From the IMG/VR virus record IMGVR_UViG_2531839374_000011: DNA of 24,188 nucleotides, one strand, 5' to 3'. The notes beneath the pieces were generated by a model. That model had not been told where the DNA came from and ran no database searches. It worked only from the letters and a program-made list of their open reading frames with translations. The DNA is from a virus (taxonomy: Duplodnaviria; Heunggongvirae; Uroviricota; Caudoviricetes). Below are positions 5,426 through 12,367 of the stretch, piece after piece; within the stretch, counting starts at the first letter, position 1; each line of letters starts with the position of its first letter. The position numbers and the translations under genes were made by a program.

Positions 5426-7835
5426 GCCATGCCGATATGAACAACTGCTGCGGCTTTAACGAGGCTGCCGCAGCGTTCTCATGGAACAGCCCGAAAAAGG
5501 CCATTAACCCTTATCTGGACCCGGCGGAAGTTGCGCCGGTTTCTGCGCTTTCAAACCTGATCACTCTGTACGCTGCCGATAACGAGCAGGAACAGTTGCG
5601 CCGCGAGGCACTGAGTGATCAGGTCTGGGAGCGTTATTTTTTTATGAATCACGTGATCCTGTCCAGCACGAAATGGAGCAGGATAAGCTCATTAGCCGGG
5701 CAAAGCTGGCGCATGAGCAGCAGCGTTTTAATCCGGATATGGTCATTCTGGCGGACGTCAACGCCCAGCCTTCCCATATCAGCAAGCCGCTGATGCAACG
5801 TATTGAATACTTCAGCAGCCTGGGCAGGCCAAAGGCTTATTCCCGCTATTTACGTGAGACGATTAAGCCATGTCTGGAACGACTGGAGCATGTACGCGAC
5901 AGCCAGCTATCTGCATCTTTTCGTTTTATGGCAAGCCATGTAGGGCTGGACGGCCTGCTGATTCTGCCTGAAATGAGTCAGGATCAGGTGAAACGCCTGT
6001 CTACCCTTGTCGCTGCGCATATGAGCATGTGCCTTGATGCAGCTTGTGGTGATTTGTATGCCACCGATGACGTTAAGCCAGAAGAAATCCGCAAGACATG
6101 GGAAAAGGTGGCAGCGGAAACCCTGCGTCTGGATGTCATCCCGCCTGCGTTTGAGCAACTCCGTCGGAAAAGAAACCGCCGTAAACCCGTGCCCTATGAA
6201 CTCATTCCGGGTTCGCTGGCGCGTATGTTGTGCGCCGACTGGTGGTACCGGAAATTATGGAAAATGCGTTGCGAATGGCGGGAAGAGCAGTTGCGTGCTG
6301 TCTGCCTGGTCAGCAAAAAAGCATCTCCCTATGTCAGCTATGAAGCCGTGATGCATAAACGTGAGCAGCGCCGCAAGTCATTGGAGTTTTTCCGTTCTCA
6401 TGAACTGGTGAACGAAGAGGGCGACACGCTGGATATGGAAGACGTGGTAAACGCCAGCAGCAGCAACCCGGCGCACCGCCGCAATGAGATGATGGCCTGT
6501 GTTAAAGGTCTGGAGCTTATCGCGGAAATGCGCGGTGACTGCGCCGTTTTCTACACCATTACCTGTCCGTCACGTTTCCATTCCACGCTCAATAACGGCA
6601 GACCAAACCCAACCTGGACAAATGCGACGGTAAGACAAAGCAGCGATTATCTGGTCGGCATGTTTGCTGCATTTCGTAAGGCGATGCACAAAGCCGGGTT
6701 GCGCTGGTATGGCGTGCGGGTGGCTGAGCCGCATCATGACGGTACAGTTCACTGGCACCTGTTGTGTTTTATGCGCAAAAAAGACCGCCGCGCCATTACT
6801 GCATTGTTGCGTAAGTTTGCCATCCGTGAAGACCGCGAGGAACTGGGTAATAACACTGGTCCACGCTTTAAATCTGAGCTGATAAACCCGCGCAAAGGAA
6901 CGCCGACAAGCTACATCGCGAAATACATCAGTAAGAACATTGACGGGCGTGGTCTGGCTGGCGAGATCAGCAAGGAAACGGGTAAATCCCTGCGTGATAA
7001 CGCTGAATACGTTAATCCCTGGGCGTCTCTGCATCGTGTTCAGCAATTCCGCTTCTTTGGTATTCCAGGGCGTCAGGCTTACCGTGAACTGCGGTTGTTG
7101 GCTGGTCAGGCGGCAAGGCAGCAGGGTGACAAAAAAGCAGGTGCGCCGGTACTGGATAACCCGCGCCTTGATGCCATCCTGGCTGCTGCTGATGCTGGCT
7201 GTTTTGCCACCTACATTATGAGGCAGGGCGGCGTGCTGGTTCCTCGCAAATATCACTTGATCAGAACCGCTTATGAAATCAATGAAGAGCCGACCGCCTA
7301 TGGCGATCACGGTATTCGTATTTATGGCATCTGGTCACCCATTGCAGAAGGCAAGATCTGCACTCATGCAGTGAAGTGGAAAATGGTTCGTAAAGCCGTT
7401 GACGTTCAGGAGGCGGCAGCCGACCAGGGCGCTTGCGCCCCTTGGACTCGTGGCAATAACTGTCTCCTTGCTGAAAATTTGAACCAACAGGAGAAAGATA
7501 AATCAGCTGATGGGAACCCCAGAACGGACATTACCAGCATGGATGACAAGGAGTTGCACGATTACCTGCACAGTATGAGCAAAAAAGAGCGCCGGGAACT
7601 GGCAGCAAGGTTACGCCTGGTGAAACCGAAACGGCGTAAAGACTACAAACAGCGAATTACAGACCATCAGCGACTGCAGCTCGTGTATGAGCTGAAGTCC
7701 AGAGGATTTGATGGCAGCGAGAAAGAGGTCGATTTACTCCTTCGCGGAGGCAGTATTCCGTCAGGAGCAGGCCTGCGTATCTTCTATCGGAACCAGCGTT
7801 TGCAGGAAGATGATCAGTGGCGGAACCTGTATTAA
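5422..7835 (+). pseudogene. Replication initiation protein (P2 gpA / 186 RepA rolling-circle endonuclease family) with a -1 frameshift in a T7 run
   Basis: Hallmark [13 protein letters not shown] and [11 protein letters not shown] motifs; N-terminal segment (track ORF 5422..5793) and main body (5673..7835) are in different frames, and both would be joined if the T7 run at 5637-5643 were T8 ([16 protein letters not shown]); start codon overlaps the dam stop (ATGA at 5422-5425). Confidence 0.85.
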
Positions 7836-7927
7836 TTACGCGGGTTAACAATTCGTGCTCTTAATAATACCAGGCATATCAGGCTGATGAACGTAAAAAA
7901 ACGTTTTACATCAGTAAGATTATTATA

Positions 7928-7947
7928 TACTGTAAATATAAACAGTG
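7928..7947. promoter_or_regulatory. LexA (SOS) box taCTGTaaatataaACAGtg
   Basis: Perfect CTGT-N8-ACAG with AT-rich spacer (CTGT 7930-7933, ACAG 7942-7945), about 45 bp upstream of the tum-like start. Confidence 0.7.
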
Positions 7948-7988
7948 GTTATGCATACAGTATTGCGTGTGGTGTCATAGGAGGAAAG

Positions 7989-8177
7989 ATGCAGGACTAT
8001 TTTTTGGAGTCTTTGAAGCTCCAGCGCATTGATTTTTTTCTTAAGCTTGTAGCGGCTAGTGAGTGTAGTGATGAAGAGAAGGGGCTGGCTCTGCAGTGGG
8101 TTTCTGAATTGACTGATGAACTCATGGCAAAAATCAGAACCCACGAATACAACCGCTCAATGGATGTCATCAGCTGA
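7989..8177 (+). CDS. SOS-regulated small protein, candidate Tum-like antirepressor (62 aa)
   Basis: ATG at 7989 with AGGAGG RBS directly downstream of the LexA box; position equivalent to 186 tum at the right end of the early region; function inferred from context only. Confidence 0.45.
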   Translation: MQDYFLESLKLQRIDFFLKLVAASECSDEEKGLALQWVSELTDELMAKIRTHEYNRSMDVIS

Positions 8178-8187
8178 GGTGACTTTT

Positions 8188-8421
8188 ATGCGCATTGAAA
8201 TAATGATCGATAAAGAGCAGAAGATTAGCCAGTCTACCCTGGACGCTCTTGAATCCGAGCTTTACCGCAATCTGCGCCCTCTGTATCCCAAAACGGTAAT
8301 TCGTATCCGCAAAGGTAGCTCTAACGGTGTGGAACTTACTGGATTGCAACTGGACGAAGAAAGAAAACAAGTGATGAAAATTATGCAGAAGGTGTGGGAA
8401 GACGACAGCTGGCTGCATTAA
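8188..8421 (+). CDS. DinI-like protein (77 aa)
   Basis: MRIEIMIDKEQKISQSTLDALESELYRNLRPLYP...KIMQKVWEDDSWL resembles E. coli DinI (MRIEVTIAK...ILQETWESADDWF); GAGG RBS overlaps the stop of the upstream gene. Confidence 0.8.
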   Translation: MRIEIMIDKEQKISQSTLDALESELYRNLRPLYPKTVIRIRKGSSNGVELTGLQLDEERKQVMKIMQKVWEDDSWLH

Positions 8422-8556
8422 GAAACGTTGCTGGCGTCTGAACTAGCTTCTGGCGTCAGCAAGGTTGAACAACGAGCCCTTGCGAGGCGTTAGCTCTGTA
8501 GTGCATGTCTATGCCGCATGAGATCGCATGATCGTTTGAGGATCGTTTTTGCTAAG

Positions 8557-8581
8557 GCCCGCCAGAACTGGCGGGCTTTTG
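8557..8581 (+). terminator. Rho-independent terminator after the tum/dinI-like operon
   Basis: GC-rich hairpin GCCCGCC-AGAACT-GGCGGGC followed by TTTT. Confidence 0.6.
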
Positions 8582-8625
8582 CGTAGATCATGCAGGTGCA
8601 TGAAAACCTCTACATAAAGCGGGCA

Positions 8626-8644
8626 GGCGTGGCGGGGATACGAT
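8626..8644. other. cos-like motif GGCGTGGCGGGGATACGAT (candidate cohesive-end site)
   Basis: First 12 nt identical to the 19-nt cohesive end I recall for 186/P2 (GGCG(T/A)GGCGGGGAAAGCA-); location between the early/right-arm genes and the portal side. Confidence 0.3.
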
Positions 8645-8713
8645 TGCGCGCTAGGTATAAGTGTGTAAAATAATTCCAAAATAAATCATCACTAATGAAG
8701 TGAGAGGGTAATA

Positions 8714-10264
8714 ATGTTAGTCAAGAAAAATAAAAATTATAGTTTATATTTTTTAATTACAAATAATCAACAGATATCTGATTCTGGTAATTATATAAAA
8801 ATAGTCCCATCAAGAAGCGATTGGAATGATTTTGGATATTTGAGTAGAGTCGAAATATCTATTTTTAATAAAAAAGAGTGTAAGGATATAATTTCACTGA
8901 ATGGTTATATTGGTTTTTTGAATTCAGAGGAGGAACGAAATGGAAAAGCAGAACTGATAAGGCGAGTGAAGAAAAAGGAAGAATCTAATTTAAAGGATGA
9001 GGGGTTTAATGATTATTTTGTCATGCTTCAGGATATGAATAATTATCGAAGACTAGTAAGATTTTTTGGGGTGAATGAATCCAAATATATATTAAATTTC
9101 ATTAATGATGTTGTTTCTAAGAAAAGTGACGCTAGTGCAGAGAATTTGAGGAAAAAAGCAATCTCTTCTGATATCTTTAATAAATCTTTCATTAGAGAGT
9201 CTGAGTCGTATTTTACTTTCAAAAATGCAGGAACAGTTCTTTCCGGTATTCAATATGAGGAGTTGGGTAATTTATCACAGCACATCAAGATTAGCTATTC
9301 GAATAAAGTTAATGAAGAAGATGTATCTTATGTTTTTAATTTTGATCACGAGCATGATTTACCAAAAAGAATTTCCATAATTATAGGCGAGAATGGTGTA
9401 GGAAAAAGCCAAACGCTTAGAGAAATCGCATTGGCTGCGATTAAAGGAAAGGATAATTTGGTGGCTGTAGTTGATTCTAACGGTGTGAGCATTGAAGAAC
9501 GAATTCAAATTAGTAGGCTCATTGCTTTTTCTCCAACAAATGAAAGTAAGTGTTCATTTCCAACCGATAAAAGAATAAAATCATTGATATGGTACAAAAG
9601 ATTGACTTTAAATCGTGAATCAAAATCCAAATTAAACTTGAATGATTTAATAGTGCAACTAGCGAGGAGTAACGACGCTATCGGCTATAATCAAAGGTGG
9701 AATATATTTGTTGATGCACTGAGTGTTCTAAATAGTAACAACGATTTAGTAATCAAATGTGGCGGTGAAAATTCACCATTTGTTAAATTAAATGAGCTTA
9801 ATTCTCGAGGCGAAGAATCTAGACTATCATTATATTCTGAAATTATTCTCTCTGGCGAGCCTTTGAGGCTTATTGAAAATAAATGTTACCCTTTGAGTAG
9901 TGGGGAAATATCGTTTATTAAGTTTTGTGTACAAGTCTGTTTGTATATTGAGAATGGGACTCTTCTATTAATAGATGAGCCAGAAACACATCTCCATCCT
10001 TCATTTATTAATAAATTTATGGCATTGCTTGATAATTTATTAGAAAAGACAGGCTCTTCAGCTATCATAGCAACGCATTCGGTTTATCTTGTTCGGGAGG
10101 TTTTTAAGGAGCAAGTGACAATACTCAGAAGACGAGATGATGGGGTAATTGTTAGCGAAAAACCGAGATTGAGTACTTTTGGGGCGAATATAGGAAATAT
10201 CTCATATTTTGTTTTCGGTGAGAGTGAACCAACTCAAATTTTAAATAAAGTAAAAACAATATAA
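8714..10264 (+). CDS. ABC-type P-loop ATPase (516 aa) with about 220-aa uncharacterised N-terminal domain; candidate defence-system ATPase
   Basis: Walker A GENGVGKSQT (near residue 225), signature-like LSSGE, Walker B LLLIDEPETHLHP, H-loop ATHSVYL; strongly AT-rich coding sequence unlike flanking phage genes; GAGAGGG RBS. Confidence 0.75.
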   Translation: MLVKKNKNYSLYFLITNNQQISDSGNYIKIVPSRSDWNDFGYLSRVEISIFNKKECKDIISLNGYIGFLNSEEERNGKAELIRRVKKKEESNLKDEGFNDYFVMLQDMNNYRRLVRFFGVNESKYILNFINDVVSKKSDASAENLRKKAISSDIFNKSFIRESESYFTFKNAGTVLSGIQYEELGNLSQHIKISYSNKVNEEDVSYVFNFDHEHDLPKRISIIIGENGVGKSQTLREIALAAIKGKDNLVAVVDSNGVSIEERIQISRLIAFSPTNESKCSFPTDKRIKSLIWYKRLTLNRESKSKLNLNDLIVQLARSNDAIGYNQRWNIFVDALSVLNSNNDLVIKCGGENSPFVKLNELNSRGEESRLSLYSEIILSGEPLRLIENKCYPLSSGEISFIKFCVQVCLYIENGTLLLIDEPETHLHPSFINKFMALLDNLLEKTGSSAIIATHSVYLVREVFKEQVTILRRRDDGVIVSEKPRLSTFGANIGNISYFVFGESEPTQILNKVKTI

Positions 10265-10345
10265 TTGCAAAGAATATGTCTTGGGATGATGTTGAATCTA
10301 AATATAGCGAGGACTTATCACTTAATGTATTAACTGCGTTGAGAA

Positions 10346-11227
10346 ATGAAATGGGCAATTGAAATGAATAAATTAAAAAGACCTGTTTTTAAAGATTATT
10401 CTGCATTTAAAAAACTATCTGCAAATAAGAGATTAAAACATCATTCTGTTCTGAATGGACAGGATACATTTATACTTAATGCATATAGATCGTACATAAA
10501 GAATAAAGGGTATCTTAATGTCAATTCTTGTGGCGTATTGAGTAACAATATTGCTGAAGCTTTGAGATATTATTATAACAATCCCGCAAAGTGTTTATCT
10601 ATAATTGATGATATAAGAGCAGCTAATTCTAACTCTCTATGTCCAATGTGTGGTTCAATGCATAGCGGGACTTTGGATCATGTTTTACCCAAGGAAAACT
10701 ATCCAGAATTTTCTTTATTCACTAAGAATTTGGTTCCTGCTTGCAAATGTAATACTTTCAAAAGTACTACTATAGCTAATTCTGCAGGCCATCGGATGCT
10801 GCATCCATATTTTGATAATATATTAAAACAAAGATTAATATGTGCTAATTTTTCTAAATTAGGGCGAACACCTACAATTGATGTAAAAATCATAATTGAC
10901 CCAATGTCACCAGAATATAACAATGTTAAGTATCATCTTGATAATGTTGTTATCAAGAATAATATTAAGGGGTATTTGTCTGAACAATGGGAGTCGTTTT
11001 ACTTATATCCTGAGCTTGTTATTAGAGGACTGAATAAGAGTCTTTCTACTTATAGCGATGTATATGAGTTGTTGACTCGCGAGTTGTTGCTGTTGGATGA
11101 AAAACATAAAGGTAAAAATAATTGGAATTCGGTTTTTGTAGCTGGGTTAATTCGACCTGATGTGATTAGGTGGATACTCTGTGAATTACATTTAGGTAAC
11201 AGAAGTCCAGACGGTCGTCTCATATGA
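10346..11227 (+). CDS. HNH-motif nuclease (293 aa from ATG 10346; alternative start at 10364); candidate defence effector
   Basis: CPMCGSMHSGTLDHVLPKENYPEFSLFTKNLVPACKCN = CxxC...DH...N...CxC pattern typical of Zn-bound HNH/His-Me finger nucleases; same AT-rich composition and orientation as the upstream ATPase. Confidence 0.7.
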   Translation: MKWAIEMNKLKRPVFKDYSAFKKLSANKRLKHHSVLNGQDTFILNAYRSYIKNKGYLNVNSCGVLSNNIAEALRYYYNNPAKCLSIIDDIRAANSNSLCPMCGSMHSGTLDHVLPKENYPEFSLFTKNLVPACKCNTFKSTTIANSAGHRMLHPYFDNILKQRLICANFSKLGRTPTIDVKIIIDPMSPEYNNVKYHLDNVVIKNNIKGYLSEQWESFYLYPELVIRGLNKSLSTYSDVYELLTRELLLLDEKHKGKNNWNSVFVAGLIRPDVIRWILCELHLGNRSPDGRLI

Positions 11228-11237
11228 TTTTTTGCAT

Positions 11238-11263
11238 CTTCAGCGTGTATCTGCACGCTGAAG
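11238..11263. repeat. Perfect 10-bp inverted repeat hairpin (CTTCAGCGTG-TATCTG-CACGCTGAAG) just after the HNH gene
   Basis: Seen directly; T6 run precedes rather than follows it on the + strand, so it is not a canonical intrinsic terminator. Confidence 0.4.
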
Positions 11264-11333
11264 AAATTCATAAAAACTGCTGGCTATTAATAAATTTTTT
11301 AGCTGTGTTAAAGAACCTCATTTAGTGATTACG

Positions 11334-12367
11334 TTAAGTAGCTAGTTTATAACTATCAAATTTAACAATGTTCTCACTTACCAATTTATTTATTTCCATC
11401 ATTCTTTTTTGTAACGGTATTAACTCGTTACGTACAAACTCCAGGCTCGCCTTCTCCACATCCCCAAACCCCCGACATTATTAGGCATAATCCCCATCAT
11501 TTGCGGTGGCACACGATGCGCCGCCATCATGTCATCCCGGCTCACGTTCTTGATGTTCAGAAACTCATCCTTCGCCGCGACTTCTGACAACGGGATGATC
11601 TGAAGCCCGTCCTTTTTGCCGTTAGGCGAGTACATAAACAGATTGCGGAAGTTACCTGGTCCTTTGGCGCTTTTCATCGCATTGCGGAGGTTGTTCACAT
11701 CCTCCTGGTTTTGCGCGGCATCGGTCATGTACATGATGAAGCCTGCATGACTGCCGTTAATGTAATACTATCGGCGGAACAGCGTGGCGGACTCGTTGAG
11801 CAGGGCTGACGGAATGGCAGAAAGGTAACCTGGCAGGCCGTAGATCTCTTGGTTGATGTCCGGTTCCATCAGATGAAAGATGCTTCCTTTCGTGAACTGA
11901 TACGGCTGCGTGGTCATGCCGTATTGCACAAACCAGTAGGTATCCAGGTCTAATCCGCGTCGGGTGTATTTTGCCAGAGCAGGCTCAAGAGCGATGACCT
12001 CTCCGAACCGGTTTGTGCGTTTCTCCAGGTAAGCGTTACCAAATACCAGATAATCCTGCACAAAACGTGAAAAAGCCTGCTGGCTGAGCAGCGGGTGAGG
12101 GATGTAGGTACTGATCAGAATGTTGCATTTCACCGCAATTGGTGAACTGTGATGCACGGCGGCGCGGAAGGTGCGCGCCAGTCCGTCAAAACTCACTGGC
12201 GGCTCATACCAGCGATCTGTCTGTACGCATTCCACATAGTCCAGTAGTTCACGGCGGTCCAGAACCGGAACGGGATCGCCGAAGCTGAATGCTTCGGCTG
12301 AAGTCTGGTTTTTATGCTGGGTCTGTTTCGTCGCCGCAGCGCGGTTCTTCTTACTCTTTCCCATCAA
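11334..12367 (-). pseudogene. Portal protein (P2 gpQ family) with in-frame TAG at 11768-11770 and a -1 frameshift in a G4 run at 11463-11466
   Basis: Track ORFs 11768..12367 and 11420..11734 are in the same frame separated by TAG (...ATLFRR*YYINGSHAG...); after ...NNVGGLG the native-looking continuation GDVEKASLEFVRNELIPLQ... is in another frame reachable by adding one G; restored length would be about 344 aa. Confidence 0.8.

Follow-up and report, generated by a model that had tools for sequence, protein, structure and literature searches.

What is a region of some 220 residues doing ahead of the P-loop of an ATPase of the phage-defence kind? The question is raised by a gene at positions 8714–10264 of a 24,188-nucleotide stretch of DNA (IMG/VR virus record IMGVR_UViG_2531839374_000011; this whole stretch is called the window below), which is a P2-like prophage of Escherichia coli or Shigella. 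An initial annotation of the locus had pointed out that this long, Lys/Asn-rich region precedes the Walker A motif, which sits near the N-terminus in ATPases of the Old, PARIS, Septu and Gabija types, and had proposed it as a possible sensor or partner-binding domain and as the part of the protein most likely to be novel. Our analysis suggests, with a probability of about 0.6, that the region holds a domain that is the hallmark of a widespread Septu-like subfamily of paired ATPase and HNH proteins (the candidate system PDC-M01), and that this domain is a regulatory module serving an infection cue or the assembly of the complex. All features of the gene pair given below lie on the plus strand.

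The open reading frame (ORF) encodes 516 amino acids in the window, begins at the codon that RefSeq annotates as the start in an E. coli prophage of 99.8% identity and is preceded by a Shine-Dalgarno-like GAGGG. It is not a chance ORF, because it extends over 1.5 kb of AT-rich DNA and has roughly 150 homologous clusters. The Walker A motif GENGVGKS occupies residues 225–232 (9386–9409), with 224 residues ahead of it, so that the reported distance of about 220 residues was correct; the interval first singled out (8714–9380) corresponds to residues 1–222. The comparison with known defence ATPases also held, as the Walker A lysine is K43 in EcB88 PtuA of Septu (PMC13096335) and the motif lies at about residue 30 in the Septu PtuA of P2 hotspots. 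The extra domain proper, as delimited by structural models, is shorter than the whole interval: it is predicted to span residues 1 to about 185, and residues from about 190 to 224 are modelled as the first beta-strands of the ATP-binding cassette (ABC) ATPase head.

Structure prediction, one of the checks proposed in the initial annotation, gave a confident fold for residues 1–185 (8714–9268; hereafter the N-domain). With an alignment of 35 sequences, the AlphaFold2 (AF2) model reached a predicted local distance difference test score (pLDDT) of 86.1 and a predicted template modelling score (pTM) of 0.84. The N-terminal half comprises six strands (residues 2–5, 10–13, 27–32, 45–51, 59–68 and 101–105) and one helix (77–91), and the C-terminal half five helices (108–118, 120–129, 140–150, 153–159 and 163–176). 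The AF2 models place the limit of the autonomous domain at residue 176 to 185, and the linker to the ATPase head, residues 177–189 (9242–9280), was modelled with low confidence (pLDDT below 50 at residues 182–190 in the isolated model and 179–182 in the full-length model). On these models the region is a real, compact alpha/beta domain of about 185 residues.

Comparison of 48 diverse members of the family revealed a small set of strongly conserved positions in this fold. Y111, which is followed by R112 (9044–9049), is the sole invariant residue, and D39, L127, D132, F155 and R161 are each kept in at least 90% of the sequences. D39 lies in the motif WNDFG (residues 37–41; 8822–8836), D132 (9107–9109) in an ND motif (131–132) and R161 (9194–9196) in an SFxR motif; the other recognisable motifs are GFIGF, NGK, FxML..M..YR (102–112) and F.KSF.R.SESYFAFKNA (155–172).

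The proposed search for remote homologues was carried out as an exhaustive phmmer comparison of residues 1–219 with 1.84 billion cluster representatives (clusters at 50% identity), which returned 153 proteins at E <= 1e-3, of which 98 reached E <= 1e-10. The full-length matches carry the N-domain at the N-terminus of ATPases of about 550 residues. The shorter matches end inside the ATPase or inside the domain, at contig breaks, and are therefore fragments and not stand-alone N-domain proteins. A search with the full-length protein recovered homologues of 530–570 residues, with 43–82% identity over 94–100% coverage, in Enterobacteria, Pseudomonas, Serratia, Stenotrophomonas, Microvirga, Limnohabitans and others. 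A word-indexed search with the N-domain alone or with a 48-sequence profile found only three truncated Shigella/E. coli fragments. With tblastn, the N-domain was found in none of the deposited phage genomes and on eight Rhizobium/Agrobacterium replicons among plasmids, where the genes are annotated only as “AAA family ATPase.”

The N-domain has no assignment in Pfam, NCBIfam or the PDB: the 48 members had no credible match to the N-domain in Pfam or NCBIfam, nor did an N-domain profile against PDB sequences. A TraG-D_C match in a single one of the 48 was treated as noise. No text describing the N-domain itself was found in the literature. The claim of novelty held in this respect and failed in another, since the domain is not unique to the locus and public models of candidate systems already contain it. 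N-domains alone matched five PADLOC PDC-M01A models, in up to 41 of the 48 members, and the PADLOC PtuA1 model PDLC00282 in 10 of the 48 (best E 5e-10); PHROG 8066, of unknown function, also covers the domain. The N-domain is absent from the experimentally characterised ATPases of Septu, PARIS, Gabija and OLD, but it is included in one model that bears the PtuA1 name. Moreover, the P2-hotspot table of Rousset et al. 2022 contains the exact protein (WP_112048222) under the label “AAA_21/AAA_15 + hypothetical”; canonical Septu forms a separate group there, whose PtuA opens directly with the ATPase head. Because of this entry and the PADLOC models, the architecture has to be regarded as already catalogued, although the N-domain is undescribed.

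In a few rare members (P0192, P0202, P0209, P0220; L045:5389-7458) another module precedes the N-domain: AbiJ_NTD3 (5e-50), DUF4062 (2e-7 and 9e-12), an MrcB_N-like region that matches weakly (E 0.015, below the cutoff) or, in a Confluentibacter protein, an extension of about 200 residues without family assignment.

The remainder of the protein, residues 190–516 (9281–10264; shortened by a frameshift in the window), is an ABC ATPase of the PtuA type (AAA_21/AAA_15; Pfam AAA_21, 2e-16). Alignment located the ABC signature LSSGE at residues 394–398 (9893–9907), Walker B, LLLIDE (417–422), followed by PETHLH at 9962–9997, and the H-loop ATHS at residues 453–456; together with Walker A, these motifs show little or no variation across the family. 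Fully invariant are the Asn of Walker A (N227), which is typical of PtuA, and H426 and H428, which alignment and hhalign identified as the HxH of the PtuA dimer interface. The corresponding residues of Retron-Eco7 PtuA, N95 and H400/H402, form its nucleotide-dependent dimer interface (PMC12673091), and a canonical PtuA from a P2 hotspot reads DEIELHLHP at the HxH segment. The full-length AF2 model (pLDDT 79, pTM 0.71) retrieved Septu PtuA (8EE4) and the retron PtuAs first in Foldseek, and it places conserved C-terminal helices of the family at residues 493–501, 508–519 and 524–536. In profile searches, the full protein matched PDC-M01A over residues 27–507 (1.1e-54) and PDLC00282 over residues 32–502, N-domain included (2e-31); other PADLOC PtuA1 models match mainly residues 390–500, and phmmer against a PDB PtuA sequence gave E 0.05.

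Translational coupling links the ATPase gene to a gene for a PtuB-like zinc-finger HNH nuclease of 287 residues (10364–11227; PADLOC PDC-M01B, 1.2e-33). We retrieved 47 genomic loci through the N-domain, from Proteobacteria, Bacteroidota, Verrucomicrobia, Elusimicrobia and Bdellovibrionota. In 46 of them an HNH homologue of about 270–320 residues follows directly, with a gene that touches or overlaps the stop codon of the ATPase, mostly by 4 nucleotides; the remaining locus ends at a contig end. No third gene is conserved beside the pair in the 47 loci. Alignment of the nuclease showed nine invariant residues in a zinc-finger HNH pattern (C93, C96, D105, H106, N122, C127, C129, N130 and H147), and hhalign matched its core to canonical PtuB with 84% probability (E 7.5e-6). 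The CxxC begins at C93 in the window protein, compared with C43–C50 in characterised PtuB, and within its extra N-terminal region Y41, Y44, Y71 and R85 are conserved.

One of the closest known systems is PDC-M01 (a computational candidate of PADLOC; Payne et al.), which supplies the best models for both window proteins and shares their gene order and adjacency, although some PDC-M01A models (388 and 435 positions) have no N-domain and open with the ATPase head. In a survey of Bacillus cereus, what was called PDC-M01 was also called “Septu” by DefenseFinder (PMC11811056). Stand-alone Septu PtuA/PtuB (8EE4, 8EEA, 8SUX; EcB88) is likewise a two-gene operon of an ABC ATPase and an HNH protein and has in common with the window pair the Walker A Asn, a DExxxHxH motif, C-terminal helices (predicted for the intact window family) and a zinc-finger HNH. 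However, the sequence similarity of Septu PtuA to the window ATPase is confined to motif regions, the characterised Septu PtuAs open at the ATPase head, lack the N-domain of about 185 residues and contain a dimerisation insert, and the window PtuB-like protein is about 40–70 residues longer than Septu PtuB.

The PtuA of type I-A retrons (Retron-Eco7/Ec78 and Ec83; 9KJX, 9N6B, 9E8Z) likewise has an additional element at its N-terminus, in the same topological position. In Retron-Eco7/Ec78 this element is a 63-residue domain that docks the reverse transcriptase (RT)-msrRNA regulator and is required for defence, and the C-terminal three-helix domain of the retron PtuA binds PtuB (both PMC12673091, PMC12819146). 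The retron domain differs from the N-domain, since it consists of three helices and two strands and shows no detected similarity to it. The window pair was rejected as a type I-A retron: it is flanked by DinI-like and portal genes, no RT gene is present among the ORFs around the pair or among the conserved neighbours in the 47 loci, and there is no Rfam match in 7800–11500 at E <= 1. OLD, Gabija GajA and PARIS AriA share ABC heads of the AAA_21/AAA_15 type and a role in phage defence, but they carry TOPRIM or DUF4435 nucleases and lack the N-domain, whereas the window system has an HNH partner. With no Toprim or DUF4435 match from Pfam in either protein of the pair, this identity was rejected as well. 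Given the remote likeness to PtuA/PtuB and the exclusion of the retron and TOPRIM/DUF4435 systems, the best label is a Septu-like (PDC-M01) ATPase-HNH module with an added N-domain.

Within this module the N-domain evolves fastest at all depths, with identities of 80, 45 and 31% against 90, 65 and 50% for the ATPase. Mean identity over the 47 loci was lowest in the N-domain (29%), higher in the HNH protein (36%) and highest in the ATPase (46%). The divergence of the N-domain follows that of the ATPase (r = 0.88) and of the HNH protein (r = 0.86), which gives no sign of domain shuffling.

Taken together, these data favour a regulatory role for the N-domain. By analogy with characterised relatives, the ATPase would dimerise head-to-head on nucleotide and hold the HNH nuclease through its C-terminal helices. 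The N-domain would link an infection cue, or higher-order assembly, to the state of the ATPase and so license the nuclease, whereupon the cell would stop growing or phage replication would be lost. On this scheme the domain would occupy the position of the RT-msrRNA-docking domain of the retron PtuA, and, judging from the model, it may also compensate for a coiled-coil insert that the ATPase apparently lacks. The regulatory reading is supported by the fact that the retron domain at the same position binds its regulator, and further by the rapid evolution of the N-domain, the N-terminal modules added in rare members and the full-length model, which has no long helical hairpin between Walker A and the signature.

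Several observations weigh against the assignment to a Septu-like subfamily with a regulatory N-domain. No report of experimental validation of PDC-M01 was found in the literature. The NCBIfam PtuA equivalog NF041760 scored 39 bits against a cutoff of 500, which represents remote similarity, and hhalign of the ATPase family with one canonical PtuA aligned the Walker B segment only. At a mean net charge of -3.4 the N-domain is mildly acidic, which makes generic nucleic-acid binding less likely. Finally, a catalytic site or a fixed protein interface would explain D39, Y111/R112, D132 and R161 equally well.

The strongest alternative is that the N-domain is itself the direct sensor of the trigger, binding a phage protein or a nucleic acid or small molecule made by the phage, after which the ATPase would activate or release the HNH protein. 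The odds are somewhat against this, yet it is a serious possibility: no other part of the protein diverges as much at any depth, as a surface in an arms race would, in retrons the PtuA domain in the equivalent position touches the sensing RT-RNA (PMC12673091), and the self-contained two-gene module offers no other candidate sensor. However, the core motifs are strictly conserved across phyla, as would be more readily expected if the domain met one shared ligand or interface than if it met a variety of phage proteins, and the extra candidate sensor modules at the N-terminus of a few members suggest that the N-domain may not be the variable sensor. A bolder form of the sensing idea, which we put forward only tentatively, is that the N-domain is an undescribed fold that may act as a built-in infection sensor or autoinhibitory switch of a large Septu-like clade and replace the control that characterised PtuAB systems exert through the retron RT-msDNA or a coiled coil, with D39, Y111-R112, D132 and R161 lining a pocket for a common infection-associated ligand.

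A further alternative, an assembly or scaffold domain, is rather unlikely. On this account the N-domain would mediate dimer-dimer or HNH contacts in place of the coiled-coil/dimerisation insert of PtuA. Between Walker A and the signature (residues 232–394), the full-length AF2 model has strands and short helices of at most 10 residues and no long helical hairpin, and in the retron PtuA it is the coiled-coil domain (residues 255–310) that makes the PtuA-PtuA contacts (PMC12673091). The extra N-terminal region of the HNH protein could dock on the N-domain, and the co-divergence of the three parts would fit such contacts. On the other hand, the correlation reflects shared phylogeny, and an interface of purely structural function would not usually be built on invariant Asp, Tyr and Arg. 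The N-domain could also be a second enzyme or effector, such as a hydrolase using D39, D132, Y111 and R161, which we consider improbable.

The weakest alternative, a negligible one, is that the N-terminal region is an artefact (a wrong start extension, a fused upstream gene or low-complexity AT-rich filler in place of a domain of the ATPase); its AT- and Lys/Asn-richness would suit this, but it is already refuted by the shared RefSeq start, by homologues from GC-rich genomes that retain the region and its invariant motifs at low Lys/Asn content, by the cluster search, in which stand-alone copies are fragments only, and by the confident fold. The Lys/Asn enrichment noted initially was confirmed by measurement, with Lys plus Asn making up 20.7% of residues 1–222 and 14.3% of the remainder, but it is an effect of base composition and not a trait of the domain, because the DNA is 29% GC and the same region contains only 5.6–7.4% in homologues from GC-rich genomes. 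These values and a normal sequence entropy rule out low complexity.

How stand-alone ATPase-nucleases of the Septu type detect infection is still poorly understood, and a conserved domain of 185 residues, without a relative among solved structures and at the position where retrons couple their sensor, is where one would naturally look for a self-contained sensing or assembly mechanism. The N-domain deserves a family definition, which neither Pfam nor NCBIfam provides. In practical terms the value is modest, as the PADLOC candidate and the P2-hotspot catalogue already cover the system and no unusual activity is indicated.

In the prophage, the pair lies among typical P2 genes. The order is gpA, the replication endonuclease (5673–7835), a small hypothetical gene, a DinI-like gene (8116–8421), the two AT-rich genes, and portal and terminase genes on the minus strand. 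A 99.8% identical prophage of E. coli UPEC-245U is annotated correspondingly as DinI-like, AAA family ATPase, HNH endonuclease and portal; its intact pair has the accessions WP_112048222 and WP_005007304. The GC content is 53–56% in the phage backbone, falls to 29–34% over 8.6–11.3 kb and is about 29% in the ATPase gene. This drop and the location in a variable hotspot of P2 are as expected if the ATPase-HNH pair is acquired cargo; the pair was found in only 3 of 5426 complete E. coli genomes. P2 hotspots also bear old and PARIS. Some of the homologous loci adjoin other defence genes, including type I restriction-modification, LmuB (Lamassu), BrxL (BREX), GmrSD, NsnA (Menshen) and MADS.

The ATPase copy in the window is shortened at its C-terminus. 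The comparison covered L001 and five contigs of IMG/VR (L049-L053), six related copies in all, each with an intact ATPase of 549 residues. The window has an A5 homopolymer at 10252–10256 where the six copies have A6, and this 1-bp deletion causes a frameshift and a stop after residue 516, so that the last 35 residues of the ATPase are replaced by TI and a stop codon. An out-of-frame remnant of the C-terminal helices (NNIIAKNMSWDDVESKYSEDLSLNVLTALRNEMGN, followed by a stop) was recognised by frame comparison at 10255–10362. The lost residues are the predicted C-terminal helices, which bind PtuB in characterised systems. The N-domain of the window is intact and identical to that of three IMG/VR copies. 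The window copy of the ATPase may be inactive, or the deletion may be an assembly error in the homopolymer.

Three more single-base deletions were found relative to the 99.8% identical E. coli prophage, at 5643, 11293 and 11468. The first falls in gpA and leaves an ORF of 720 residues against the 804 annotated, the second is intergenic between the HNH and portal genes, and the third turns C6 into C5 and splits the portal gene into ORFs of 104 and 199 residues. Two of the four deletions (10252 and 11468) are in 6-nucleotide homopolymer runs. Either single-base indel errors of the assembly or a decaying prophage would account for this pattern. Copies in Shigella boydii, S. flexneri and E. coli (P0001, P0002, P0123) are shortened as well, to 243, 128 or 117 residues, and one of them breaks inside the P-loop. 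This suggests that the system has been inactivated repeatedly in genomes of the Shigella type. The shortened Shigella/E. coli copies and the window have a Y124 variant in common.

A promoter scan was uninformative in the AT-rich DNA, with 14 promoter-like sites against 14.3 expected. Downstream of the DinI-like gene, just before the fall in GC content, a GC-rich hairpin with a T-run (GCCCGCCAGAACTGGCGGGCTTTT) can be read at 8556–8584; a simple terminator scan did not list it, but from its sequence it looks like a terminator at the boundary between phage backbone and cargo.

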